From NCBI GenBank assembly GCA_038154245.1, contig JAYOZP010000002.1, forward strand, positions 114,928 through 178,927: a stretch of DNA of 64,000 bases, in the 5' to 3' direction. This document shows positions 9,464-36,778 of this stretch, in pieces. This DNA comes from Nitrospinales bacterium. GTDB lineage: Bacteria; Nitrospinota; Nitrospinia; Nitrospinales; JAJDAT01. How positions within the stretch are numbered: the stretch's first letter is position 1; every line of letters begins with the position of its first letter. Made by a program: the position numbers and the translations under genes. A model generated the notes under the pieces. The model was given only the letters and a program-made list of their open reading frames with translations. It was not told the DNA's origin and did no database searches.

Positions 9464-10033
9464 GTGTTTATTATCCTTGGTTTGGGTAATCCCGGGTTAG
9501 AATATGAGTCCACCCGCCATAATCTTGGGTTTATGGTAGTAGACGCTTTGGCGGAAAAGTATGATGTAAAGTTTTCCGGATCAACAATAAATTGTGTTTA
9601 TGGGGATGGCGAGGTAAGAAATATTCCGGTTAGAATCGGAAAACCCATGACATATATGAACGAAAGTGGGGTTGCCGCTAAAGCAATTCTTTCAGTTTCA
9701 AAATTATCCCCAAATCGTTTGATTGTTGCGCATGACGAGATTGATTTTGTATTTGGAAAAATTAAGGTAAAGCACAAAGGCGGCGATGCTGGGCAACGTG
9801 GTATTCGCTCGATCATTTACCGGTTAAATGACGACCAATTTTCCAGGATTCGAGTAGGAGTAGGAAGGCCTGAAGGTAATCGCGATATTGTTGATTATTT
9901 ATTGTCGCCGTTTGAGGAAGAGGAGTGGCCTGAAGTAAAAATTATTGTTGAACGAGCAGTTGAGACTATTGAAACAACTTTAGAAGACTTAAATCGAAAA
10001 ATAAATAATTCGGAGGAAGAGGAAGAATGCTAA
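9464..10033 (+). CDS. pth: Peptidyl-tRNA hydrolase
   Basis: [30 protein letters not shown] and [15 protein letters not shown] start. Confidence 0.9.
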
Positions 10034-12102
10034 AGGAATACAAAGGGGAACTGATTTTTGTCGCCGTTTCCTTGGTAGTTTATTTTATTTTTGCCGCGTT
10101 TGGCGCGTCGGAAAACTTCGCTTATCTGGCTGTTGTATTTGGTTTTTTTGGATTATGCGTCGCGTGGAAAATTTATGAATATGTTGACGATCATTCAGAC
10201 GGTAATGATCGAATGGTTGAGATTGCCGATTCTATTCATGAAGGAGCTATGGTTTTCCTTTCTAGAGAATACAAAATTCTAGGCTATTTTGTGGCCTTTG
10301 TTGCCCTTTTATTGATAGTTGTTATTAGCTTTCAAAAAGGACTTTGGATAGGGCTCTGGACGGCGGTTGCTTACGCAGTAGGCGCTGGTTGTTCAATGTT
10401 AGCGGGATTTTTTGGAATGAACGCCGCGACATCAGCTAACGTTCGAACCTCTCAAGCCGCTAATGAAGGCGGTCAAGCTCCTGCTCTTTCGGTTGCTTTT
10501 AATGGCGGCGCTGTTATGGGGCTTTGTGTCGCTAGTTTAGGCTTGGTAGGAGTTGGCGGATTATTTTTATTATTTGCTCGAGGAGATTCTGTTAGCGTAA
10601 TTAGCGGGTTTGCTATGGGAGCTAGTTCCATAGCTTTATTTGCTCGTGTTGGCGGTGGTATTTATACCAAGATTGCAGACGTTGGTTCGGATTTAGTTGG
10701 TAAAGTTGAAGCTGGAATTCCGGAGGACGACCCTAGAAATCCTGGAGTTATTGCAGATAACGTTGGCGATTGTGTTGGCGATACTGCAGGGCTTGGAGCT
10801 GATATTTTTGAATCCTATTGTAGTTCCATGATTGCGGCTTTAGCTATTGGCGCGACAATGTCTACGATGAGAATGGAATATATGTCATTGCCAATTATTA
10901 TCGCGATGATTGGATTAATTGCGTCTATTGTTGGTATCCGTTCTATTGCAGTGTTAAAACATATGGACCCTGCCGATGTTTTGCGCTACACCACTTTTAT
11001 TAGCGCTGGCGCAATGCTTCTTGTATCCGCAATTGTTATAAAAATTATGAATCTTCCAATGGGTGTTTTCTGGGCTCTTACTTTTGGTTGTATTGCAGGC
11101 ATAGCTATTGGATTAATCACTGAGTACTATACAGCTGGAAAACCTGTTATTAAAATTGCTGAATCGAGTAAAACCGGTGTCGCTACCGTTATGATTACAG
11201 GATTAGCGGTTGCTATGGAGAGTACAGCATTACCAATTATGACTATTGCTACCGCAATTTATTTGGCTTCCGCTACTGCAGGTCTTTATGGAGTTGCATT
11301 GGCTGCTGTTGGTATGTTAGCTACAGTTGGGATTACTATGTCAGTTGACGCTTATGGGCCGATTGCCGATAACGCTGGCGGAATTTCAGAAATGGCTAAT
11401 CTTGGACCGGAAACCCGAAAGATTACCGATGGGTTGGATGCTTTGGGCAATACCACTGCAGCTATTGGTAAGGGGTTTGCGATTGGTTCTGCGGCTCTAA
11501 CCGCCCTTGCGTTATTCACCGCATTTTGCCAAGCCGCTCATATTGAATCTATTGATATTACTAAAACGACCGTAATTGTTGGATTTTTCATTGGCGGGAT
11601 GGTTCCTTATGTTGTAGCGGCAATGACTATGACGTCTGTAGGAAAAGGGGCTTTTGAGATGGTTGAAGAAATTCGACGTCAGTTTAGAGAAATCCCAGGT
11701 TTGCTTGAAGGTACTGGAAAACCAGATACCGCAAAGTGTATTGATATTAGCACTGCGGCTGCTCTTCGAGAGATGATTGCTCCAGGGGTTATAGCATTCA
11801 TCATGCCAATTTTAATAGGCGTGGGATTTGGAGCGGAAGCTTTAGGCGGAATGTTAGTTGGCGCGACTCTTTCAGGCGTTTTGTTAGCCTTGTTAATGTC
11901 TAACGGCGGCGGCGCTTGGGATAACGCCAAAAAGTTTGTTGAAGGCGGTATGCTCGGCGGTAAAGGCTCAGAAGCTCATAAGGCGACTGTAGTTGGCGAT
12001 ACTGTTGGAGATCCTTTGAAAGATACTTCGGGACCAGCTATGAACATCCTCATTAAGTTGATGTCCATCGTTTCTTTGGTGTTGGCTCCCATGTTTGTAT
12101 AA
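10027..12102 (+). CDS. hppA: Membrane-bound proton/sodium-translocating pyrophosphatase (K+-dependent type by the GNTTAA motif)
   Basis: 691-aa polytopic protein with [46 protein letters not shown] and [16 protein letters not shown]. Confidence 0.95.
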
Positions 12103-12120
12103 GAATTTAGATACTTAAAA

Positions 12121-12156
12121 GGCCGGATGAGGTTTCCTCATCCGGCCTTTTTTTTT
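12121..12156 (+). terminator. Rho-independent terminator after hppA (possibly bidirectional, shared with pilB)
   Basis: 12-bp perfect stem GGCCGGATGAGG / CCTCATCCGGCC, followed by nine T. Confidence 0.85.
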
Positions 12157-12219
12157 GATTATCCTATTTTAGTGATTTCTACCTGAAGTTAACTGTTTTA
12201 GAGGTTAGAAAACGTATTA

Positions 12220-13929
12220 CTAGGCAAAGGTGACGCGGTTAACTTCTTCAATGGTTGTGTAACCGCCTAGTACTTTGGAAAGAGCGTCTTGCCTAATGGT
12301 TTTGAGGCCTTGAGTTTTTTGAGCCAGTTGTCGAATGGACATTGGCGCGGCTTCTTTTAATATTAGTTCTCTAATTTCATCAGTTACAACCAAAACTTCG
12401 AATACTCCCATTCGGCCCGCATAACCGCTTTTTTTGCAAGCTTTACAACCCTCTCCTTTAAAAAGGGTAATTTTTTTGTCCGTTCCGCGGGGATATAGTT
12501 GGGCAATTTCACTTCTATCGGGTTCATAAGTAATTTTGCAGGTTTTACAAATTTTTCGAACCAAGCGCTGAGCTAAGACTCCCACAATTGAAGAAGCTAA
12601 TAAAAACGGTTCGACTCCCAAATCAGAAAGTCGGGAAATTGCTCCGGCTGTATCGTTAGTATGAAGTGTGCTAAGAACTAAATGCCCAGTTAAGGCCGCT
12701 TGAATAGCAATTTCGCTGGTCTCGCCATCTCGGATTTCCCCAACCATAATGATATCTGGATCTTGCCGCATAAGGGACCGCAGTCCAGTTGCAAAGGTGA
12801 CGCCAGCTTTAGCGTTAACCTGGGTTTGACGGATTCCAGGGAGCCTGTATTCCACAGGATCTTCAATAGTTTTAATATTTTTTCTATCGTCGTTGATAGC
12901 GCTTAATGAGCCATATAATGTTGTTGTTTTTCCACTTCCAGTAGGACCTGTAACTAAAATAACTCCATAAGGTTTAGACAAAAGAGTGGAAAATTTTTCT
13001 AAACTACTTCCCATTAAACCAGAGTCTTTCAAGTCAACATTGAGTTTGCTTTTGTCTAATATCCGGAGAACAACGTTTTCTCCATATATAGTTGGACAGG
13101 TAGAAACCCGTAGTTCAATTTCTTTGCCTCCCAGCTTTGCGGAGAAACCTCCGTCTTGAGGAGCTCTTGTTTCTGAAATATCCATATTAGCTAAGACCTT
13201 AATCCGAGAAATAAGGGCAGACTCTACTCCTTTTGGAGGGCTGGTCGCTTTAAATAGAACGCCGTCTATTCTATAACGTATAGCTAGGTCGCCTTCTTCT
13301 GGTTCTATATGGATATCACTCGCTCCATCGTCCAAAGCTTGTTTTAAAACCATTTCTACCAATTTCGCAACTGGAGTGTCGGCAGTACCCTCTTCTAGAG
13401 CTGGCGCAGCGTCTCCCTCTAAAGCGGCCTGAGACTCTTCTTTTTTTACATCTAAAGCCCCTAGGCTTTTCATCGCTGCATTTATAGATGCTGCGACTCC
13501 ATAATGTTCCTGGATGGCTCGATCAATATCTTCCTGGCTCGCTACTGCTGTTTCCACATCCATACCCGCTTGAATAGTCACTTCATCAATAGCAAAAATA
13601 TTCAAAGGATTGGCCATTGCGATATGGAGTATGCCGTCTTTAATGGCAATTGGCATTAGTTTGTGTCTTTCGGCGACGGCTTGATTTACTTTTGCTACTG
13701 CTTCCGCTTCTATTTTTACGTCTTGCATGTCTAAGAATGGGATTCTTAGCTGAGCGGCTAGATTGCTGAGCATGCGTTCTTCAGAAATAAAGCGCATTTT
13801 GATTAGGATTTCTCCTAATTGGCCGCCATTTTGTTTTTGATATGCAAGGGCTTTACTTAATTGGTCTTGATCAATAGCGCCAGCTTGGATTAAAACGTCG
13901 CCTAACCTAAGTTTTTCTCGAATAGCCAT
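12220..13929 (-). CDS. pilB: Type IV pilus assembly ATPase (GspE/PilB family)
   Basis: N-terminal T2SSE_N-type domain (LGDVLIQAGAIDQDQLSKALAYQKQNGGQLGEILI). Walker A GPTGSGKTTT, Walker B DPDIIMVGEIRD, His box GHLVLSTLHTN, and a tetracysteine motif CKTC...CKACKKSGYAGR. pilC and a prepilin also lie in this window. Confidence 0.8.
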   Translation of the reverse strand: MAIREKLRLGDVLIQAGAIDQDQLSKALAYQKQNGGQLGEILIKMRFISEERMLSNLAAQLRIPFLDMQDVKIEAEAVAKVNQAVAERHKLMPIAIKDGILHIAMANPLNIFAIDEVTIQAGMDVETAVASQEDIDRAIQEHYGVAASINAAMKSLGALDVKKEESQAALEGDAAPALEEGTADTPVAKLVEMVLKQALDDGASDIHIEPEEGDLAIRYRIDGVLFKATSPPKGVESALISRIKVLANMDISETRAPQDGGFSAKLGGKEIELRVSTCPTIYGENVVLRILDKSKLNVDLKDSGLMGSSLEKFSTLLSKPYGVILVTGPTGSGKTTTLYGSLSAINDDRKNIKTIEDPVEYRLPGIRQTQVNAKAGVTFATGLRSLMRQDPDIIMVGEIRDGETSEIAIQAALTGHLVLSTLHTNDTAGAISRLSDLGVEPFLLASSIVGVLAQRLVRKICKTCKITYEPDRSEIAQLYPRGTDKKITLFKGEGCKACKKSGYAGRMGVFEVLVVTDEIRELILKEAAPMSIRQLAQKTQGLKTIRQDALSKVLGGYTTIEEVNRVTFA

Positions 13930-15858: not shown

Positions 15859-16524
15859 ATGGTCGGCGGATTAACTCCAATTCCATCAAAGATAGATCCT
15901 AATTCACAAATCCAAAGTGATAAAAGTTCTTTGGGAAAAGACGATTTTATGACTTTGTTGGTCGCTCAATTACAAGCTCAAGATCCCACAAATCCTATGG
16001 ATGCTCAGGACTTTAGCGCTCAGCTTGCTCAATTTAGTACTGTTGAACAAATGTTCAATGTGAATGAAAACTTAGCTGCTTTGCAACAGTCTCAATTAGC
16101 TTTAAATAATACATCTGCTTTGACTTTAATTGGAAAAACAGTCAATTCGACCGGAAATAGCTTTAACTACGCGGAAGGCGCATCGGTAGATTTGAAATAC
16201 AATCTCCCAGCGGACGCCGAAAAAGTAACTATTGATATCTTAAACAGTAGTAGTCAGTTGGTTGCAACGATAGACCAATCAGATGTAAAAGCCGGCAAGG
16301 CTCTCTTCACTTGGTCTGGATTAGATTCTCAAGGCGATGAAGTACCAGCTGGAGATTATACGTTTAATGTAAATGCTCAAGATAGTTTGGGCAATTCATT
16401 TTCAGCCGAAACGTTGTCTTCTGGAAAAGTTTCGGAAGTGATTTTTGATCAAGGGATTAGTTACGCAATAGTTAACGGTGTGAAAATACCAACGACTCAA
16501 ATAACTCAAGTGTCGGGCAATTAA
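15859..16524 (+). CDS. flgD: Flagellar hook assembly/capping protein FlgD
   Basis: LGKDDFMTLLVAQLQAQDPTNPMDAQDFSAQLAQFSTVEQ is the typical FlgD N-terminus. The C-terminal part is Ig-like. Confidence 0.85.
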   Translation: MVGGLTPIPSKIDPNSQIQSDKSSLGKDDFMTLLVAQLQAQDPTNPMDAQDFSAQLAQFSTVEQMFNVNENLAALQQSQLALNNTSALTLIGKTVNSTGNSFNYAEGASVDLKYNLPADAEKVTIDILNSSSQLVATIDQSDVKAGKALFTWSGLDSQGDEVPAGDYTFNVNAQDSLGNSFSAETLSSGKVSEVIFDQGISYAIVNGVKIPTTQITQVSGN

Positions 16525-28320: not shown

Positions 28321-30903
28321 TCAATTATTCAAATTACGATTGCTAGGGCGTATATGAATACCTAGTTTTTCATTTATCCATTGTTTATCTTTATATTCAA
28401 TTTGGTTTAAGTAGCTATGTTGAATTACTAATTCTTGGAGCAATCGCCTACCAATCGGATTTCCTTCTAGGTCCGAGTATAATTTATCCAAAAGTTTTCT
28501 TGGAATATCTTTTGTGAATTCTAAATGGATGGCAATTTCAACTAAACGATGGGCAGGAGAATTTTTATTTTCCTCACTTATTTCTTCAAATACTTCTAGT
28601 AATTTTTCTGTACCTATAGAATTCCCTATTTTCCTTATTACCGAAAAAGAGGTTCCATAACATAACATTACGAATATGTTCTTTGCTATTTTAGCAATAT
28701 CCTTACTAGACAAATCACTTTTTACTTTGATGAGAGACCCAATGAAGTTTATTAATTGGTCTTTATCGTCTTTTGTTGCTGAAAGAAAAAAATTTAAGAA
28801 TTTCAATCCGGAGGAATAAGCGGATAATGTTAAATCTTTTAAGTCTTGCTTAGTTAATGAGCCGTATCTATTTCTTAAAATTTGACCAATGATTTCAACA
28901 ATCCTCACCGAGCGGTTAATTTCGCGATAAATTTTATTTTCATCCTCCGGGGTTAAAATCTCTAATTCTTCTTCTGTATCTTCAATCTCATCTTGAATTT
29001 CATCTTTAGTTTTAAGACGTTTTTTTCTTTCCTCATCTACATTTTTTTGATCAATCACCAAACTAGGGATTGTATCCATATAGTCGTAAAGGTAATCAGT
29101 ATCAGAAATATCTAATGTTATTGGATCAGTGCCATCAAATATTGTCAAAGCAGTAAGAAGTATTTCATCGGTAACATATTGATTTTTTGAATGGTGAACT
29201 AAAAAAATCAAAATATTTGCGTTTTTTTCCGTATGTAAGTTATTACATAAATCTTCAACAATTTTTTTATAACTTTCATTATTCAAATGATCGGCTATAT
29301 GTTTAGCGACATAAAAATAAAAAATATACCTATAGTTAAAACTATAATCGCCATCTTTTTCTTTAATGATTCCCGAAGTGATTAAGACTTTAATAATTTT
29401 TTCATGAGACTCTAAGACAAAGCTTTTGCTATATTCTTTTTTAAATTGGTCTAATTGTTTTTCGTTAATAGACTCACTCCCCGTTAAAAAAATAAAATAA
29501 GCTAGTTGGGTGGAATAATTTAAATAACCATCAAAATCACTTGCATTAATTTTGGCCTTACTTAATGCCCCTTGAATTAAGTTTTGGTAACAATGGCCAT
29601 AAGAAGTCAAGGAATAGTCAGAAGGAGTAGTGGTATCAAGTAATTGTATGATTGATAAAACATAAATTGGCTTAGGGGGAACAATGTTTTCTCTTATTAT
29701 GGCGTCAACATGACACATTACGGTATCAGTTTCATTATGAATTGTTACAACATCAATCGTATCTTCTTCCCCCATGCTAACCCATTTTTCAATTAGTTCA
29801 CATCGCCGGGAATTTCCGAAAGGAAATATTTCATATTGTTCAAAATCGGCCAGTTCAATAAACTTTGTTTCCATATACATAATTGAGGTATGAGAAAATA
29901 ATACCAAATGATCAACTAAGCTTAAGACATTATCGAGAAATTTCTTTTGCGCTCGGATATTTAATTTTATTTGGTCATAATCATCTACAATTAAAATTAT
30001 TTTACAATTTTCGGAAATAAAATCTTTGTATGTTTGGTTAGAGTATTGTTCAGAAATTAGCTTACTTATTAAGTCCTCGGGTTTTTGGGAACTAATTTTT
30101 ATTCCATTGCAAAATAAAGGAAGGCAATTATCATTAAAATAAGATTTAAAAAATATTTTGGCTAAAGAAGTCTTTCCGCTTTGTTCTTCTCCCATGATTA
30201 GAACTTTATTTGGTAGATTTTCTACTTTATCTAGAGTTTTTGAGTTTATTTTTCTATCAATTACTTCAATATTTTTTTTTATCTTTTTTAAATCAGGAAA
30301 AACAAATATATCGTCTAAATAAACTTTTTCCTTTTTGCGATTTTGAAAAATAACCTCGGTATCATTTAGTTTGTTAGCGAAATCGGAATTTAATGTAAAT
30401 TTATTGAATAAAAAATTTGAATCAGTTGTTTTCTCGAATGAAGAATTAATTTTTTTCACTGAATCTTTTATTGAATTAATAACTTGAATCCATGCGGAAT
30501 CTCTTTGATTACCATAAGTACTAACGGGTTTTCCATCTTTTGGTGCAGCTAAATACTCTCCTAGTTCACTATCTTGCCAATCACAAGGCTTTATTATTAT
30601 TGGGATAATTCTACATTCATTATTTTTTAATCGATCTAACGTTTCTTTTAGCTCAACTTCATAGCAGTACCAGGATTTTAGAAAATTTGCGCTAACCAAA
30701 AAAGCTATTAACTTAGAATTTAATAAATTTTTTTTTATTTCTGGATCTAATTTATCTCCAACGACCAATTTATTATCGGTCCACTCTCCTATTAAACCAT
30801 TCCTTTTGATGGTTGAAATGTGCGTTAATAGTTCATCTAAATATGTTTTATCGTTATGAGAATAGCTAATAAACAACTTTAATGGAGGAGGTTTGTCGTT
30901 CAT
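28321..30903 (-). CDS. TIR-domain + P-loop STAND-like NTPase + helical C-terminal region (candidate single-gene defence protein)
   Basis: aa 9-110 form a TIR_2-like domain (LFISYSHNDKTYLDEL, AFLVSANFLKSWYCYEVEL with the conserved Glu, IIPIIIKPC). Walker A GEEQSGKT is at aa 238-245 and Walker B IILIVDDYD at aa 302-309. About 450 further aa have no motif I recognise. The two 60-nt lines I counted are 20-25% GC. Confidence 0.75.
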   Translation of the reverse strand: MNDKPPPLKLFISYSHNDKTYLDELLTHISTIKRNGLIGEWTDNKLVVGDKLDPEIKKNLLNSKLIAFLVSANFLKSWYCYEVELKETLDRLKNNECRIIPIIIKPCDWQDSELGEYLAAPKDGKPVSTYGNQRDSAWIQVINSIKDSVKKINSSFEKTTDSNFLFNKFTLNSDFANKLNDTEVIFQNRKKEKVYLDDIFVFPDLKKIKKNIEVIDRKINSKTLDKVENLPNKVLIMGEEQSGKTSLAKIFFKSYFNDNCLPLFCNGIKISSQKPEDLISKLISEQYSNQTYKDFISENCKIILIVDDYDQIKLNIRAQKKFLDNVLSLVDHLVLFSHTSIMYMETKFIELADFEQYEIFPFGNSRRCELIEKWVSMGEEDTIDVVTIHNETDTVMCHVDAIIRENIVPPKPIYVLSIIQLLDTTTPSDYSLTSYGHCYQNLIQGALSKAKINASDFDGYLNYSTQLAYFIFLTGSESINEKQLDQFKKEYSKSFVLESHEKIIKVLITSGIIKEKDGDYSFNYRYIFYFYVAKHIADHLNNESYKKIVEDLCNNLHTEKNANILIFLVHHSKNQYVTDEILLTALTIFDGTDPITLDISDTDYLYDYMDTIPSLVIDQKNVDEERKKRLKTKDEIQDEIEDTEEELEILTPEDENKIYREINRSVRIVEIIGQILRNRYGSLTKQDLKDLTLSAYSSGLKFLNFFLSATKDDKDQLINFIGSLIKVKSDLSSKDIAKIAKNIFVMLCYGTSFSVIRKIGNSIGTEKLLEVFEEISEENKNSPAHRLVEIAIHLEFTKDIPRKLLDKLYSDLEGNPIGRRLLQELVIQHSYLNQIEYKDKQWINEKLGIHIRPSNRNLNN

Positions 30904-31286: not shown

Positions 31287-31640
31287 GGGGGCGACCTGGC
31301 TTCGACGGGAGTAAAGAGACCCTGGTTGCATGTACGGGATACCGTTGGCCCGTTAAAAAACGGTAACATCATAATTGCTAACGATTATGACATCGCTGTA
31401 GCAGCTTAATTTCTGCTACCGTTCTCTCCTTCTTTCGTCCGTAAGAGGGAAGCGAACGTTATAAAACGGACTGGCTAGATTTGTGAGCCTTGGGCAAATT
31501 TGGCGAGATTTTTAAAGGCTGGCTTAAATTAAATCCTGTTCGTGGGAGTTGATTAAAGCGAGATCTTAAAACACGAAATAAGCATGTAGACGCCTTGCGT
31601 TAAAGACTTTCGGACGGGGGTTCGATTCCCCCCGCCTCCA
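31287..31640 (+). ncRNA. ssrA: tmRNA (SsrA), tag peptide ANDYDIAVAA
   Basis: The 5' GGGGGCG pairs with the 3' CGCCTCC, including a G3:U pair, with discriminator A at 31640. T-arm GGGGGTTCGATTCCCCC. Resume codon GCT is at 31377, and the reading frame GCT AAC GAT TAT GAC ATC GCT GTA GCA GCT TAA ends at 31409. CCA is not encoded. Confidence 0.95.
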
Positions 31641-31881
31641 TAAATTTCCATATTCCCCCCTATAATATAATAAACTACCATCCTCCGCAGTCTGGGAAAC
31701 AGAGGTATTTAAAGTTAAATTTCGGTAGGGTCAGAAAAAGAAAAAGCCCCTGAAAGGTAAACCTCCAGAGGCTTTTTTCGACAATATTATGGGGAGCGGT
31801 CTAAAGAAGTATGCTCCAGAATTTGATTCCAATCTTCTAAAGTTTTAAATAGCTGTTTAGATATTTCTCTCCTCACCTCCA
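31641..31881. repeat. Islet repeat unit 1 (segments A1-B1-C1)
   Basis: A1 31641-31701 (TAAATTTCCATATTCCC...AGTCTGGGAAACA). B1 31702-31780 includes an imperfect hairpin flanked by A and T runs. C1 31801-31881 ends in a tmRNA-3'-like sequence. Confidence 0.7.
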
Positions 31882-31882
31882 A
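31787..31882 (-). CDS. Conserved micro-ORF, copy 1 (31 aa, TTG start)
   Basis: (M)EVRREISKQLFKTLEDWNQILEHTSLDRSP. Within codons 6-27 it differs from copy 3 at 5 synonymous codons and one E/D change. Followed by a conserved ATAATATTGTCGAAAAAA + hairpin + T-run. Confidence 0.4.
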   Translation of the reverse strand: MEVRREISKQLFKTLEDWNQILEHTSLDRSP

Positions 31883-32095
31883 ATTATTGCGATCTTATAA
31901 AATAAAAGAAAGCTCCCTGAAAATTGACCTTTGAAGTTCAACGAAACGAAAACGGGAAAACGTCTGTTTTTTTCATAAATTTCCGGTAATTTATGTTTTC
32001 GTTTTCTTAGAATTCAAACCACGAGAAGTTTTTGCAAATTCCGACAAAATATTATAGACTGAATATTATCTGTTAATTTTCTGTTTAGGTGGATT

Positions 32096-32395
32096 ATGTT
32101 TTCAATGGATGCTATATACCCCGTGTCAGACTTTAGCCGTAAACCCGCTGAACATATCAAACGTTTAAAAAAAACGGGTAAGCCAGCAATACTCACGGTG
32201 AACGGTAAAGCCCAGATTGTCGTGCAGGATGCCAAAGCCTATGAAGAAATGGTTGAGCTTTTAGATAGCTTGGAGAGCATTGCCTTATCTGCAAAACAAC
32301 ACGATGAAGGAAAAGCGTCACCAGCAAAAGAAGTTTTTGCTAGACTGGAGAAGCGTTTATCTAAAAAATACCCGAATGCAACGCTTCAAGATTAG
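32096..32395 (+). CDS. Phd/YefM-family antitoxin
   Basis: IYPVSDFSRKPAEHIKRLKKTGKPAILTVNGKAQIVVQDAKAYEEMVE is the typical Phd/YefM N-terminal fold signature. SD AGGTGGA. Overlaps the toxin start by 20 nt. Confidence 0.8.
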   Translation: MFSMDAIYPVSDFSRKPAEHIKRLKKTGKPAILTVNGKAQIVVQDAKAYEEMVELLDSLESIALSAKQHDEGKASPAKEVFARLEKRLSKKYPNATLQD

Positions 32396-32678
32396 TATTC
32401 CGCTCCATGTTGAAAATGAAATTGAGCATTATATTGATGTCATTGCCCAAGATAATATCAAAGCGGCTTTGAACTGGTATCGAGAGATCGAAGCGCAAAT
32501 TTATACCTTAGATCAAGATCCGAAACGTTGCCCGGTAGCATTTGAAAACCGTTTTCATGAATACGAAATAAGAAACCTAATATTCGGCAATTATCGAGTG
32601 CTCTTCCGTATAGAAAATAAGACAGTTCAAATTCTCCATGTCAAACACGGAAAAATGGAACGCAAACCGTTAGAGTAG
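32376..32678 (+). CDS. RelE/ParE-family toxin
   Basis: 100 aa counted from M33 of the tracked ORF: MQRFKISIPLHVENEIEHYIDVIAQDN...YEIRNLIFGNYRVLFRIENKTVQILHVKHG. This follows the ParE/RelE pattern, and the gene is paired with an upstream antitoxin. Confidence 0.75.
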   Translation: MQRFKISIPLHVENEIEHYIDVIAQDNIKAALNWYREIEAQIYTLDQDPKRCPVAFENRFHEYEIRNLIFGNYRVLFRIENKTVQILHVKHGKMERKPLE

Positions 32679-32750
32679 GGAAATCTGAAAAGTTTAGGGC
32701 GGCGCTTTGAAAAAACTATTTTGTTCTGTTTCAAGTTGTCTATACCTCAC

Positions 32751-33040
32751 ATTCCGGGAAACAGAGGTTTTAAAGGGGGTAAATTTCGATAAGATCAGAA
32801 AAAGAGAAAGCCTCCAGAGGAAGGACATCTGAGGGCTGATTTTTTTTGGTAGTATAATTACCCAAAGAAGTATGTTCTAGAATCTGGTTCCATTCTTCTA
32901 AGGTCTTAAATAATTGTTTCGATATTTCTCCCCTTGCCTCCATAACTTTCCATATTCCCCTCTATAATATAATAAGCTACCATCTTCCGTAGTCTGGGAA
33001 ACAAAAAAGCCTTCGAAGGAAAACCTCCGAGGGAGAGCCT
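32751..33040. repeat. Islet repeat unit 2 (segments B2-C2-A2 plus a partial B)
   Basis: B2 from GGGAAACAGAGGTTTTAAAGG at 32756. C2 32863-32942. A2 32943-33003 is near-identical to A1. A partial hairpin GCCTTCGAAGGAAAACCTCCGAGGG follows. Confidence 0.7.
32770..32943 (-). CDS. Conserved micro-ORF, copy 2 (57 aa, lacks the early stop and reads through the hairpin)
   Basis: MEARGEISKQLFKTLEEWNQILEHTSLGNYTTKKNQ... Codons 6-28 differ from copy 3 at 7 codons, all synonymous. Confidence 0.35.
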   Translation of the reverse strand: MEARGEISKQLFKTLEEWNQILEHTSLGNYTTKKNQPSDVLPLEAFSFSDLIEIYPL

Positions 33041-33095
33041 TAACCTTTCCGCATAAGGATGGATTTAAATAAAGATATTCTGCTATAATAAAAAT

Positions 33096-33329
33096 ATGAG
33101 TGAAACATACCTAAATGGAAAAATCACTGTAACATCTCTTTCTGCGCCAACGGCTAATGACTTGGAGAAGTTACGGGTATTGTCAGAGGAAGATAGAAAC
33201 ACTTTGCTTAACGAAGCGTTGGAACGTGGTCGTAATAGCGGGGTGAGCGACAAAACAGTTGATGAAATTTGGGATTCAGCGCTTCTAAAAGCCAAAGCAA
33301 TAAAAGAAAAATCCCAATATGCGCTATAG
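33096..33329 (+). CDS. Putative antitoxin (ParD/CC2985-like C-terminal motif)
   Basis: 77 aa. LEKLRVLSEEDRNTLLNEALERGRNSGVSDKTVDEIW resembles the ParD-family C-terminal segment. Its stop overlaps the ATG of a parE-like reading frame. Confidence 0.5.
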   Translation: MSETYLNGKITVTSLSAPTANDLEKLRVLSEEDRNTLLNEALERGRNSGVSDKTVDEIWDSALLKAKAIKEKSQYAL

Positions 33330-33604
33330 GCTTTCTAAGAAAGCTGTAGCTGATCTTGAGAATATTCTTATCGAAGGAATTCTTACTTTTGGCGAGTTGC
33401 AAGCCTTAAAATATCAGGATTCATTTAAGAAAACATTCGATTTGCTTGCCTATATTAGGACGTTGGAGCGAGCGTAGCAACACAAATGAACATCGATTTT
33501 TGCATGGTTCGCATGTTATCTATTATCGTATAGAGTCTGAGGAGATTGTGATTGAAAGTATAATTTATGGTCCAATCATTACAGATATTTGGGGCGATAG
33601 GTGA
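33319..33604 (+). pseudogene. parE-family toxin gene inactivated by a frameshift near 33450
   Basis: Frame 1 reads MRYRLSKKAVADLENILIEGILTFGELQALKYQDSFKKTFDLLAYIRTLERA* (stop at 33475). Frame 2 continues PILGRWSERSNTNEHRFLHGSHVIYYRIESEEIVIESIIYGPIITDIWGDR* (stop at 33602-33604). Joined, the two frames match the ParE pattern. Confidence 0.7.
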
Positions 33605-33763
33605 AGGGAAAAAGCCCCCGGAGGAAAACCTCCGAGGGCTGTTTTTTCGACAATATTATTTCCTATGGAGACGGAAAGTCACCTAAAGAAGTATGCTCCA
33701 GAATTTGATTCCATTCTTCCAGGGTTTTAAATAATTGTTTCGATATTTCATCCCCTGGCTCCA
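33605..33763. repeat. Islet repeat unit 3 (segments B3-C3)
   Basis: Hairpin GCCCCCGGAGG-AAAA-CCTCCGAGGGC flanked by A and T runs (33611-33650). C3 33683-33763. Confidence 0.7.
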
Positions 33764-33764
33764 T
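33663..33764 (-). CDS. Conserved micro-ORF, copy 3 (33 aa)
   Basis: MEPGDEISKQLFKTLEEWNQILEHTSLGDFPSP. The ATG is the reverse complement of the tmRNA-3'-like CCAT. Followed by a conserved 3' region and hairpin terminator. Confidence 0.45.
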   Translation of the reverse strand: MEPGDEISKQLFKTLEEWNQILEHTSLGDFPSP

Positions 33765-33852: not shown

Positions 33853-35304
33853 ATGTCTAATTTTCTGAAGATTAAAGCCTGGCTGAAAACTCCAGATAAT
33901 TATTTACTAGCAATTACTTTTATATTTCTAATTGTTGGTATTTATTTTCGTTTTGAAGCATTCGAGGTGGTGCGAATAACAGAATGGGTTACCAGAGATT
34001 TTGATAGAGCCTTTCATTTATTCGATGGAGATTATATTCCTCTTGCAGGGTCGGAGAGAAATGCGGGAGGAAGGCTTCTAGGACCTTTTTTATATTTCTT
34101 TTTGGCAATTCCCTTATTTTTTAAATATTCCTATGAATCGATATACGCTTTCAATTTGATTCTAAATATTGCTTCTCTTATTTTTTTCTTTTGGTTGATT
34201 AAAAAGTATTTTGGAAAAGTTACAGGAGCTTTTGCTGCAATTTTATTATCGGTGAGCATTGTTCACATAGATAGCGCGGGTTTCCCCATAAATCCTACCT
34301 TTATATTTCCTTTGATTTTCATATTCTTATGGCTCTTATTCAAAATTGTAATAGAAAATCAAATAAAGTATTTCTCCTGGATTTTTGTGACGATTTCATT
34401 GGGAATCCAAATGCATTTTTCACTGGCAACCTATTACCTCATTCCATTGGTTGCCTGTTTAGCGTTAAAAATCAAAATCACTAAAACCGAGATAGTCAAA
34501 ACCGTACTTTTCTCACTTCTTTGTTTTACGCCTTATCTGATTTATAAATTCCAATTTTATGAACCAGAAATTAAATTGACTGAAACTTTCTTTAACCAGG
34601 GAATCTCGTTGGTTTCTTTTTTAAAGACAATTTTGCTTCATGATTTGTTTTTAAGAATTAATCAAGAAATGTCAATTTACGGATATTACACGATACCAAA
34701 CTATATCCGAATTCTAAATTATCTGTTTTCGATAATTTCATTTTATGGTTTGATCTTTTTAATCGTTATTCATTATAGAAAAAACAATTTTCAGAAATGC
34801 AAAAAAGAAGTTTTGTTAATTTTAACATTTTATATTCCCGCGCTTATTTATGCCCTAAGTAAGCCGCAAAACGTCTGGCACTTTTGGTATTACTTTATTT
34901 TTATTATTCCGATGATTCTGATTAAGGCTCGTTTTTTATTCAACTGTATACAAAAAATAACCAATGAAACTTTATTAAAAATTGCGAGTTTTTCGGTCGT
35001 TACATTTATTTCTTTTATAGCTTTAATTAGTTTAATAAGTTTTCATAAAGTGAGCGTAGGCTTTGCGCAGATCGTGAGATTAGAAAGTTTTAGTAATCCT
35101 AGAAACCTGACTTTGGTTTATAGCAGACTAATGTCCAATTTAGGATTAACGCCCAAGGAATTTTTTGATAGCGCGTTTATTGAAGGAGACTCGGTAGGAT
35201 CGTTTAAATTTTTAGAATTGGCTTACGATAAGCAAGCTGTGAAAAGGGCAAGCCTTCCAACGCTCAAAGCTGTTTTTATATTGTGCCGGGTGGGTATAAG
35301 TTAG
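33853..35304 (+). CDS. Polytopic membrane protein, GT-C/ArnT-PMT_2-like
   Basis: 483 aa with about 11 hydrophobic segments. The first loop DFDRAFHLFDGDYIPLAGSERNAGGRLLGPFLYFFLAIPLFF resembles the ArnT/PMT_2 family. No search was run. Confidence 0.4.
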   Translation: MSNFLKIKAWLKTPDNYLLAITFIFLIVGIYFRFEAFEVVRITEWVTRDFDRAFHLFDGDYIPLAGSERNAGGRLLGPFLYFFLAIPLFFKYSYESIYAFNLILNIASLIFFFWLIKKYFGKVTGAFAAILLSVSIVHIDSAGFPINPTFIFPLIFIFLWLLFKIVIENQIKYFSWIFVTISLGIQMHFSLATYYLIPLVACLALKIKITKTEIVKTVLFSLLCFTPYLIYKFQFYEPEIKLTETFFNQGISLVSFLKTILLHDLFLRINQEMSIYGYYTIPNYIRILNYLFSIISFYGLIFLIVIHYRKNNFQKCKKEVLLILTFYIPALIYALSKPQNVWHFWYYFIFIIPMILIKARFLFNCIQKITNETLLKIASFSVVTFISFIALISLISFHKVSVGFAQIVRLESFSNPRNLTLVYSRLMSNLGLTPKEFFDSAFIEGDSVGSFKFLELAYDKQAVKRASLPTLKAVFILCRVGIS

Positions 35305-36041
35305 GAAAAAAAATAATTCTTTCTGAAAAGATAATGGAATCTCTAAATAATCTTTTTCAAGATAAGTCGATTAATATTGTCAAACAAGGCTCATTTTTGT
35401 TTTCCGATTTAGAGCAATATAAAGATAAGAAGATTCATGTTTTTGAATACAAACCAAGAATTAGTCAACCTTGTTATACAAATACAAGAAATAACTTTCT
35501 AACAGGAAAGGACAATAAAGATTATCTTAAAGAGAGTTATGGCGTTAACAAAAACCTTGATGGAGAACTTTTTATAAAACCTATATTTAAGCAATCAGAT
35601 TTTGATAATAATTCGAATTTAGTATCCTGGAAAAATAAGTCTATCGTTTTTAACTCAAAATTGAACACTCCAATTAGGATTGAAGTTTCATTAGTAAAGA
35701 ATGACGATAAATATAGTTTACGTAGCGATTTAAATTATTATAGTTGGGGTAAGAAAAATACAAATTTGTTTCATATCAAAAAATTAGATCTGAAGGTTTT
35801 GAGGAAAGAATCTGTTGGTAAGAAAAATAATTTATCTTTTTCAATTATTGATCCTCAAACCTGGGTTTCGAAAGTTAGATCTAAGTCGGTTGGCGTAGAG
35901 AACTTTGATTGGTATAGAGAGTTTGATTTTGTCGAGGTTAACAACTTACAAAAAGATAGTTTTGACGTTGAGCTTCATTGGGAAGTTATGTTTCCCAATA
36001 GGAAGGATCAATGCTGTCTAAAATTTAAAACAATTCTTTAA
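35283..36041 (+). CDS. Hypothetical protein (probable start ATG 35334)
   Basis: Open frame overlapping the preceding membrane-protein gene. Lys/Asn-rich. No recognisable motif. Confidence 0.4.
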   Translation: MPGGYKLGKKIILSEKIMESLNNLFQDKSINIVKQGSFLFSDLEQYKDKKIHVFEYKPRISQPCYTNTRNNFLTGKDNKDYLKESYGVNKNLDGELFIKPIFKQSDFDNNSNLVSWKNKSIVFNSKLNTPIRIEVSLVKNDDKYSLRSDLNYYSWGKKNTNLFHIKKLDLKVLRKESVGKKNNLSFSIIDPQTWVSKVRSKSVGVENFDWYREFDFVEVNNLQKDSFDVELHWEVMFPNRKDQCCLKFKTIL

Positions 36042-36082: not shown

Positions 36083-36778
36083 ATGATTGCTCAAGTATAT
36101 TGCAAACATTTGGATTTGGCTGGCGCGGAAATTTGCCAAAAAGCCGGAGCGGATCATGTAGGCTGGCAAATAGATTTAAATGAATTTGAGAGTTGGGAAA
36201 GTATCCAAACTCGTATAAAAGAATATGTGAAAATTTCAGAGTATCTGAGCGATCAAAAAATTTCTTCGGCTTTTCTTGTTCATCCAACGTTAGATGGAGA
36301 GCTGATAAAGAAAATTTTGGACATCGTTCGGCCAACAATTTATTTTGCAAGTGGCGAACGGTCTATAGAGACCATCCGTTGGTTATCCCGCAAAAAAAAC
36401 GCTCCACAAATTATGGTTCCCATTGGAGTACCAACAAAAGACTGTCTATTGCCAGACTATGATCCCATCTCAGAGATGAAAAATTATTCGTCTTTTGTTC
36501 AATGGTTTACTACCGACACGATCAATCCGAGCGAAAGCGTTGAATCATTTGGTTGTTCTGGGAAGACGGGTAATTGGGACGCTTTTCCCGAGTTGATAGA
36601 AAAGAGTCCGTGTCCGGTAATTGTTTCTGGTGGAATGAATTCTAAGAATATTCTGGATGTTTATAAAATTTGCAAGCCATTCGGATTCGACGCCCATTCC
36701 TCAGTTTGTAAAGACGGTTATCCAGACTTAGAGTTGGCAAAAGAATTTGCACAAGCAGTTCACGCCTTAGATAGTTGA
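36083..36778 (+). CDS. Phosphoribosylanthranilate isomerase (TrpF)-like TIM-barrel protein
   Basis: GADHVGW near the N-terminus. C-terminal GKTGNWDAF...PVIVSGGMNSKNILDVYKICKPFGFDAHSSV resembles the TrpF phosphate-binding end. Confidence 0.45.
   Translation: MIAQVYCKHLDLAGAEICQKAGADHVGWQIDLNEFESWESIQTRIKEYVKISEYLSDQKISSAFLVHPTLDGELIKKILDIVRPTIYFASGERSIETIRWLSRKKNAPQIMVPIGVPTKDCLLPDYDPISEMKNYSSFVQWFTTDTINPSESVESFGCSGKTGNWDAFPELIEKSPCPVIVSGGMNSKNILDVYKICKPFGFDAHSSVCKDGYPDLELAKEFAQAVHALDS

Follow-up and report, generated by a model that had tools for sequence, protein, structure and literature searches.

Micro-ORFs downstream of ssrA in a Nitrospinales bacterium as probable detached C-terminal segments of a large serine recombinase

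The closest described counterparts of the locus analysed here are the tandem islands at ssrA, the transfer-messenger RNA (tmRNA) gene, of Dehalococcoides, which carry the serine integrase DsiB and have direct repeats of the ssrA 3' end at their borders (McMurdie et al., 2011; PMC3146451). The locus itself lies in a stretch of 64,000 nucleotides from a Nitrospinales bacterium (assembly GCA_038154245.1, contig JAYOZP010000002.1, positions 114,928 to 178,927), called the window throughout, and resembles those islands in having tandem units 3' of ssrA that are bounded by repeats of its 3' end. Each of three units carries on the minus strand a short open reading frame (ORF) of about 33 codons, a micro-ORF. 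These micro-ORFs are probably the detached 3'-terminal segments of large serine recombinase (LSR) integrase genes, that is, relics of elements that use the 3' ends of tRNA and tmRNA genes as insertion sites, and they are referred to below as tails.

In Dehalococcoides, a serine recombinase of the DsiB type (of approximately 540 amino acids) stands by attL and is read toward ssrA, with its 3' end always overlapping attL; these authors speculated that full function of the recombinase may require the circle or a neighbouring island with the requisite 3' gene fragment, judged the overlapping part to be divergent and probably non-functional, and described some units as integrase-less and perhaps cis-mobilizable (McMurdie et al., 2011; PMC3146451). 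In the present case, by contrast, the 3' fragment that is displaced carries a conserved motif on which purifying selection is strong, forms with the fragment fused occur as well, nikA/mobC and a relaxase are present on the elements, and the targets are tRNA-Arg and tRNA-Thr as well as ssrA. DsiB is likened to the present LSR from its published description only.

Other elements are also known to divide a gene at the attachment (att) site. In Mx8 (IntP/IntX), attP lies inside the integrase gene, the target is a tRNA gene, and the integrase acquires another C-terminal coding end upon integration. The Islander study, citing Tojo et al. (1996), describes the integrases of Mx8 and SSV as extending across attP, and adds that tyrosine integrases were, as of 2014, the sole integrases known to target tRNA and tmRNA genes (PMC4383910). 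The likeness lies in an attP inside the gene and in an integrase whose C-terminal coding end changes upon integration, but those enzymes are tyrosine recombinases, whereas here an LSR is involved and the exchanged piece is a short conserved segment, predicted to be helical. Mycobacteriophages such as BPs, which use a tyrosine integrase, have attP inside the repressor gene, and integration truncates that gene and changes its protein; a phage gene is likewise truncated at attP, although the gene cut there is that of the repressor. Finally, the accretion of cis-mobilizable elements (CIMEs) beside integrative and conjugative or integrative mobilizable elements (ICEs, IMEs) at one att site, a concept cited by McMurdie et al. 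(2011; PMC3146451), resembles the window in its tandem units split by att repeats and its inner units devoid of recombination and transfer genes, but the repeat here holds a coding integrase fragment and not merely a short att core. We rate the present case as a serine-recombinase version of these arrangements, with a conserved and selected tail and a link to nikA and relaxase genes, and the window feature as a set of relics.

Coding constraint on the tail peptide

The three tails and the tmRNA gene downstream of which they lie are the following, E values referring to the hidden Markov model (HMM) of the peptide family.

31287..31643, plus strand: ssrA, the tmRNA gene, tag ANDYDIAVAA (ARAGORN; Rfam RF00023, 204.7 bits)
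31787..31882, minus strand: tail copy 1, translated LEVRREISKQLFKTLEDWNQILEHTSLDRSP, then stop (E 5e-19)
32770..32943, minus strand: tail copy 2, conserved part 32860-32943, MEARGEISKQLFKTLEEWNQILEHTSLGNY (E 1.6e-19)
33663..33764, minus strand: tail copy 3, MEPGDEISKQLFKTLEEWNQILEHTSLGDFPSP, then stop (E 1.1e-19)

The three translations are exactly those of the original prediction, made from the letters of the window alone, and their consensus is (M)ExxxEISKQLFKTLE[ED]WNQILEHTSL. The repeated core is the 3' end of ssrA, GCCTCCA, copies of which, oriented like the gene, stand at 31882, 32943 and 33764; ssrA is the integration target at this locus. Every tail opens with the reverse complement of this end, (A/T)TGGAG(G/C)(C/T), so that the ORF does start inside a copy of the ssrA core, as had been claimed. 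Copy 1 has TTG at a degenerate core (CCTCACCTCCA), and the 57-residue ORF of copy 2 is a run-on, since a deletion took the normal stop (compare ...GNYPSP and stop in locus L003). Copy 3 is the outermost unit, and beyond its core (CCCCTGGCTCCA) unrelated chromosomal sequence begins.

The pattern of substitution among these copies is that of a protein. Between codons 6 and 28, copies 2 and 3 differ at seven codons (8 nucleotides), all of them synonymously, while copies 1 and 3 differ at five synonymous codons and by one D/E and one D/G change; a recount gave the figures that had been reported. Over codons 6-27 of the three copies, 11 of the 13 variable sites are third positions and the remaining two are first positions of Leu codons (binomial P 2e-4; 6e-4 allowing any phase), and in a simulation of eight random substitutions the peptide remained unchanged in 0 of 200,000 trials. 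The ratio of nonsynonymous to synonymous rates (dN/dS, Nei-Gojobori) among the window copies is 0-0.03, with a proportion of synonymous differences (pS) of 0.46-0.79. In the larger set of 18 DNA copies, whose 12 sources are the window and 11 further loci, the corresponding ratio of proportions, pN/pS, is 0.35 in the true frame, not near 1, and 0.98 and 1.29 in the other two. Selection acts on the peptide and not on an RNA or DNA site, which is what the original prediction had concluded from the three copies.

A function of the DNA or RNA itself (an integrase arm site, an origin of transfer (oriT), or a tRNA- or tmRNA-like RNA fragment), with the ORF merely incidental, would agree with the resemblance of the first ~25 nucleotides to the acceptor and T-loop region of the target, with one compensatory pair between copies 2 and 3 (CCAGGG/CCCTGG versus AAGG/CCTT), and with a site upstream of mobilization genes, which is the expected place of an oriT. 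The codon pattern essentially refutes this proposal, which we hold to be very improbable: variation is concentrated at third positions, constraint is confined to one frame, and the protein motif is held at 45-65% identity across phyla that differ in GC content. RNAalifold, applied to 10 copies, found only 5 pairs (-2.5 kcal/mol) and no conserved RNA fold, and ARAGORN and Rfam called nothing over the block other than the true ssrA. A tmRNA or tRNA pseudogene was rejected on the same calls, the weak matches to His_leader, ctRNA and permuted tmRNA coinciding with terminator-like hairpins and ssrA-flanking sequence. An oriT nick site, to which the resemblance of TGGTGCGCC to the MOBQ core had pointed, was dropped, since in loci L008 and L009 it is the local tRNA genes that the repeats match.

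The same divergence bears on the origin of the copies. The succession of ssrA, a conserved 60-nucleotide block that follows it (block F), a hairpin and copy 1 resembles an 'empty' convergent gene pair, and block F and the hairpins are themselves repeated, as they would be if a native small gene converging on ssrA had been locally duplicated in tandem, with no mobile element. However, the pS between copies far exceeds the divergence of the hosts (ssrA is 94-95% identical between the window and its closest relatives, the Nitrospinota metagenome-assembled genomes L001 and L002), and therefore the copies are not recent local duplicates. The peptide also occurs at tRNA-Arg-linked islands in Alphaproteobacteria and beside relaxases, and the number of units varies between close relatives; such a duplication is thus highly unlikely. 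Some tails of the window and L002 are decaying in place: besides the TTG at the core of copy 1 and the lost stop of copy 2, the copy-1 counterpart in L002 shows two nonsynonymous substitutions (K13Q, H24D), one synonymous change and a 5' deletion, and the outermost copy of L002 contains a nonsense codon, with truncation into ParE.

Beyond the window, the peptide is part of a family that numbers at least 27 sequences, spread over several phyla and sharing the motif SNQLFxxLEEWNxxL. The copies in L001, L002 and L003 came from peptide-pattern scans, and an exhaustive HMM search and a profile search returned ~25 further short ORFs of the form [MV][VA]xxxGE.SNQLFxxLEEWNxxL with a short variable end, all members ending 4-15 residues past the motif; against the family HMM, built with the tails of L009 and of the proteins P0026 and P0028, the window copies score E 1e-19 to 5e-19, and the profile search agrees. 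Family members match no Pfam or NCBIfam model, searches of viral contigs and phage genomes found nothing, and plasmids and chromids gave relic LSR ends only. Among the 1.84 billion representatives searched exhaustively with the HMM, only short ORFs carried the peptide and it was never the N-terminus of a long protein, and a placement at the N-terminus of a recombinase or other long protein, which the original prediction had proposed to check, was rejected; the sole long match (P0006) is an unrelated repeat protein.

Continuity with a large serine recombinase

Locus L009 is a complete element of 8.7 kb with a tail copy at 10001-10108, followed in order by genes for a NikA-like protein, a PF03432 relaxase, DUF3800, a reverse transcriptase, a small resolvase and a 522-residue recombinase. 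This last protein has Resolvase, Recombinase and Zn_ribbon_recom domains, which makes it an LSR, and lies at the tRNA-Arg end of the element, where its last 11 codons (..LEMAHRGGF.LDS and stop) enter, on the opposite strand, a tRNA-Arg(ACG) gene that ARAGORN overlooked owing to two Ns. Within the 9-bp att repeat the LSR frame reads ATG GCG CAC, and at the other end the tail frame reads ATG GCG CAC TTA GAG.. (MAHLEGEISNTLFEVLEEWN..; MAHLEGEISN...). Since the two frames are equal across the repeat, joining of the ends in a circle would extend the recombinase ORF into the micro-ORF.

Three database ORFs have this arrangement already joined. In P0026, P0022 and P0028 an LSR C-terminal region (..RTxxIxLPFKxL..) is fused in frame to the tail motif, which follows ~17 residues on; the spacing equals that of the virtual L009 junction, with which the fused ORFs are colinear, and by BLASTP their LSR part matches L009 at 53% over 38 residues (E 5e-16) and 47% over 19 residues (E 3e-6). 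The ends of LSRs of this clade in the integrated form diverge exactly at the core and then read the tRNA in antisense, and P0029 and P0030 likewise have ends of tRNA-antisense-type residues. The frame was verified in two further loci, where the LSR runs into tRNA-Thr (L013, Tritonibacter, 12022-12810) and, as ..KIMADRGGFEPPTP and stop, into tRNA-Arg (L015, Phaeobacter pPGA1_262, 15926-16231), and in L014 (Devosia, 12094-12465) an LSR remnant abuts tRNA-Arg. All three readable junctions (L009, L013, L015) have Met at the CCA position in the phase of the tail. The claim that the ORF straddles the att core, and that integration or excision breaks or rebuilds it, was right.

As a side observation, L013, L014 and L015 are relic C-terminal recombinase halves on alphaproteobacterial chromids and plasmids that are annotated only as hypothetical, and the Phaeobacter relic is interrupted by an IS21 element. 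An AlphaFold model of the fused fragment P0026 has a mean pLDDT (predicted local distance difference test) of 57.8 and was not used as evidence; in it the tail forms one helix (residues 58-81), and the tail is predicted, with low confidence, to be a single amphipathic helix.

The mechanism that we propose is as follows. The carriers would be a family of integrative mobilizable or conjugative elements whose integrase ORF spans attP, the tail being its last ~27 conserved codons and 4-7 variable ones. On the excised circle the integrase body would be followed by the att core, the tail with its stop (and often a terminator hairpin), nikA/mobC and relaxase, and the hairpin after the stop would serve as the integrase terminator ahead of the mobilization genes. 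Integration would cut within the core, so that the integrase body would stay by the target gene and end in ~10 residues read from the tRNA in antisense, while the tail would be placed at the far junction (attR), reading inward. On this account peptide-level selection and a start inside the att core occur together because the tail belongs to an integrase gene that spans attP, and promoter signals are missing and start codons variable or absent because the tail is the C-terminus of an integrase. In the window, at least three such units, from separate elements, would have piled up downstream of ssrA and lost their integrase and mobilization genes, leaving two ParE-type toxin-antitoxin (TA) modules, hairpins and tails. 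We infer from the homology of the tails that the ssrA elements of Nitrospinota likewise used such an LSR. The original prediction had named truncated stumps of a recombinase gene as a finding that would refute it, and in spirit this is what was found, although the stump appears as the natural C-terminal piece and not as an N-terminal one.

Several observations weigh against this interpretation. No full-length protein with LSR and tail was found in the searches of 1.84 and 5.8 billion proteins, which gave three short fused fragments only, and P0026, P0022 and P0028 could derive from tandem junctions and not from circles. L009 is the only complete element recovered. No Nitrospinota locus with the recombinase was recovered, the link to the ssrA copies being by tail homology alone; the window and its three closest relatives, L001-L003, contain neither LSR nor relaxase nor remnants of either, and the L009 LSR, used as a tblastn query, has no match in them. 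At the copy-2 junction an in-frame TAG in block F means that no fused integrase is encoded there, and the frequent ATG at the core, together with the hairpin past the stop, leaves room for independent translation.

The exchange of C-termini may alter the behaviour of the integrase, for example if an integration-proficient enzyme were made only from the circle. Large serine integrases normally require a separate directionality factor, and distinct C-termini in the free and the integrated state suggest a simple possible coupling of activity to state. A stronger form of this idea, in which the tail is a state or directionality switch, is one that we consider distinctly unlikely: the full-length enzyme, encoded by the circle only, would integrate, the integrated copy would make a tail-less enzyme, and the detached tail, standing in front of the mobilization operon, would be translated from the core ATG upon induction of the transfer genes and act in trans on the truncated enzyme, as a split-protein counterpart of a recombination directionality factor, triggering excision.

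The ORFs of this family, of ~33 codons, are mostly uncalled or labelled 'hypothetical', and read as integrase tails they become a precise marker for the far end of a tRNA or tmRNA island. On this reading, integrases of the present clade are given a wrong annotated C-terminus whenever the element is integrated, and the conserved motif pinpoints residues for functional study and would be useful to tools that mine serine integrases and att sites. The window feature itself is ordinary, a graveyard of old insertions kept beside TA genes.

Island context and transfer genes

Wherever the DNA was obtained, the tail copy points inward from one edge of an inserted segment. At the opposite edge stands the inversely oriented target gene, which is ssrA for the window and L001 and tRNA-Arg for L008 and L009. 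The 5' end of each copy repeats the 3' end of its own local target gene, with 10 of 10 positions matching tRNA-Arg in L008 (GGCGCGCCCG) and 9 of 9 in L009 (ATGGCGCAC).

In all family copies, the first ~35 nucleotides also contain a T-loop-like TCGAA(C) that is displaced by ~5 extra nucleotides relative to real tRNA and tmRNA 3' ends (for example, AGAAATATCGAA versus AATCGAA). Being displaced in every tail, this part has been passed down within the family, and the local target is tracked by no more than the acceptor-like 8-10 nucleotides.

After the tail, and on the same strand, a NikA/MobC-like gene and a PF03432 relaxase gene follow in eight contexts (L004, L005, L007, L009, L010, L011, the P0004 contig and L012, the last being a weak tblastn match on a Sphingobium plasmid), at a tail-to-nikA distance of 10-160 nucleotides; L010 additionally has a type IV coupling protein. 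The usual neighbour of the tail is thus nikA/mobC with a relaxase. L007 and L010 have three tails each, with TA genes or other cargo between them, which is an architecture like that of the window. Within the window no unit holds nikA/mobC and a PF03432 relaxase, the genes by which an IME is recognized here, and its units are classed as remnants.

Two side observations concern the tail and its immediate surroundings. In L009 (10001-10525) the NikA-like ORF is in the frame of the tail, with one TGA between them and no canonical start codon nearby, for which readthrough, a sequencing error and an unusual start are candidate explanations. In L004 (4095-4125) and L010 (2560-2590) a second fragment resembling a tRNA 3' end (GAGCCAACAGGAATCGAACC) lies ~90 nucleotides upstream of the tail and suggests a further, different att remnant beside it.

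The position ahead of the mobilization genes in these eight contexts gives substance to another explanation, namely that the peptide is a free-standing helical protein of ~33 residues, the first cistron of a nikA/mobC-relaxase operon, whose start merely overlaps the att core. It might serve the relaxosome or regulation as an accessory, or work in trans with the truncated integrase as its partner, and the fusions would be by-products of geometry; this proposal is partly compatible with the integrase-tail interpretation. The core supplies an ATG in about half of the copies (copies 2 and 3, L004 and L009-L011) and GTG or TTG in most others (TTG in copy 1, GTG in L001 and L003, CTG-GTG in L006), the stop position is conserved, and strong selection is seen even for copies in integrase-less contexts. 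In the inspected copies of the window, L004, L005 and L011 a terminator-like hairpin lies past the stop, which is absent in L009 and L012.

These features notwithstanding, a start codon is missing at the core in L008 (CCG) and L012 (GCG), none of the three window copies is preceded by a promoter-like site, and Shine-Dalgarno-like matches in the window sequence are weak only. The frame of the tail agrees with that of the LSR at L009, L013 and L015, the peptide is part of a longer ORF with equal spacing in P0026, P0022 and P0028, and the copies of the window and L002 lineage gather disabling changes. We therefore regard a free-standing protein as unlikely. The original prediction had described a self-contained small-protein gene, and in this it was wrong or incomplete: the L009 LSR reads across the att repeat in frame, three fused ORFs exist, and L008 and L012 lack a start. 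Its complete small transcription unit is retained in one half only, as copies 1 and 3 are followed by a block of 18 nucleotides (TTTTTTCGACAATATTAT) that is 100% identical behind both, and by terminator-like hairpins on the minus strand, but no promoter-like site was found.

Two other candidates were rejected. A leader peptide or attenuator of the mobilization operon does not agree with conservation of the heptad type, the lack of regulatory codons, a distance to nikA that varies from 10 to 160 nucleotides and the absence of the hairpin in L009 and L012. As for integron-like cassettes, there is no integron integrase, and the repeated unit is coding.

The remaining features of the locus

With the integrase-tail interpretation as the frame, the other features between ssrA and copy 3 are these.

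31641..31701, plus strand: block F, conserved 60 nucleotides directly 3' of ssrA (repeat D2, 91% identity)
31741..31778, no strand assigned: hairpin T1, between ssrA and copy 1, a stem-loop that resembles a terminator in both directions (repeat D3, hairpin scan)
32096..32395, plus strand: PhdYefM-family antitoxin of TA module 1 (Pfam PF02604, E 8e-12)
32376..32678, plus strand: ParE-family toxin of TA module 1 (Pfam PF05016, E 9e-10; orthologues in L002 and L003), its start set by comparison with L002
32750..32836, no strand assigned: partial block F and spacer, then hairpin T2, homologous to 31688-31778 (repeats D5, D6)
32929..33003, plus strand: second ssrA 3'-end core (TCCCCTTGCCTCCA) and block F (D2 91%; blastn 92.6% over 68 nucleotides)
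33004..33040, no strand assigned: hairpin T3 (repeat D3, hairpin scan)
33096..33329, plus strand: putative antitoxin of TA module 2, 77 residues (position upstream of the ParE fragments; conserved in L002; no Pfam match)
33319..33604, plus strand: ParE-like toxin of TA module 2, a frameshifted pseudogene (ORFs 33319-33477 and 33446-33604; PF05016 E 0.004 on the second)
33609..33641, no strand assigned: hairpin T4, past copy 3, resembling a minus-strand terminator (repeat and hairpin scan)

The feature at 32929..33003 is the junction of two tandem units. Block F recurs there, beside copy 2, at 32944-33003 (91% identity, 60 nucleotides), and also lies directly after ssrA in L001 (14330-14389) and L002 (10167-10226), with few positions different. 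Between the window and L001 the differences are limited to the first bases past the ssrA end and one C in a C-run, and the block is near-identical although ssrA itself differs between them. In the frame of the micro-ORF, block F has a TAG seven codons upstream of the copy-2 ATG and is non-coding. It may be a left arm of the element, a recombinase half-site, an ssrA trailer or an outward promoter; a remnant of the 3' end of the integrase was rejected, as the one open frame of the block does not share the phase of the tail, and most differences between the block's two copies are nonsynonymous.

In TA module 2 the toxin is broken by a frameshift and the putative antitoxin is intact; in L002 a deletion has instead truncated the toxin of this module and joined it to a tail fragment.

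The array is flanked upstream by a GT2 glycosyltransferase and a TIR-STAND protein and downstream by a PMT_2 membrane protein and housekeeping genes. No integrase or relaxase was found in the window, where Pfam searches of the neighbouring genes gave housekeeping, TIR-STAND and TA proteins only. The slot between GT2 and ssrA holds an 860-residue protein with TIR and STAND NTPase domains in the window (28321-30903, minus strand) and a 576-residue reverse transcriptase instead in L002 (10862-12592). A near-identical reverse transcriptase stands in L001 (11984-13705) on the opposite side of ssrA, beside a caspase-like Peptidase_C14 gene, and both sides of ssrA look like a hotspot for defence genes. 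Just outside the array, window positions 33853-36041, with a PMT_2-family protein (483 residues) and the next ORF (252 residues, no Pfam match), are absent from L002, where the homologue of window 36083-36778 follows ~0.4 kb past the last tail copy; this presence or absence is a further insertion or deletion.

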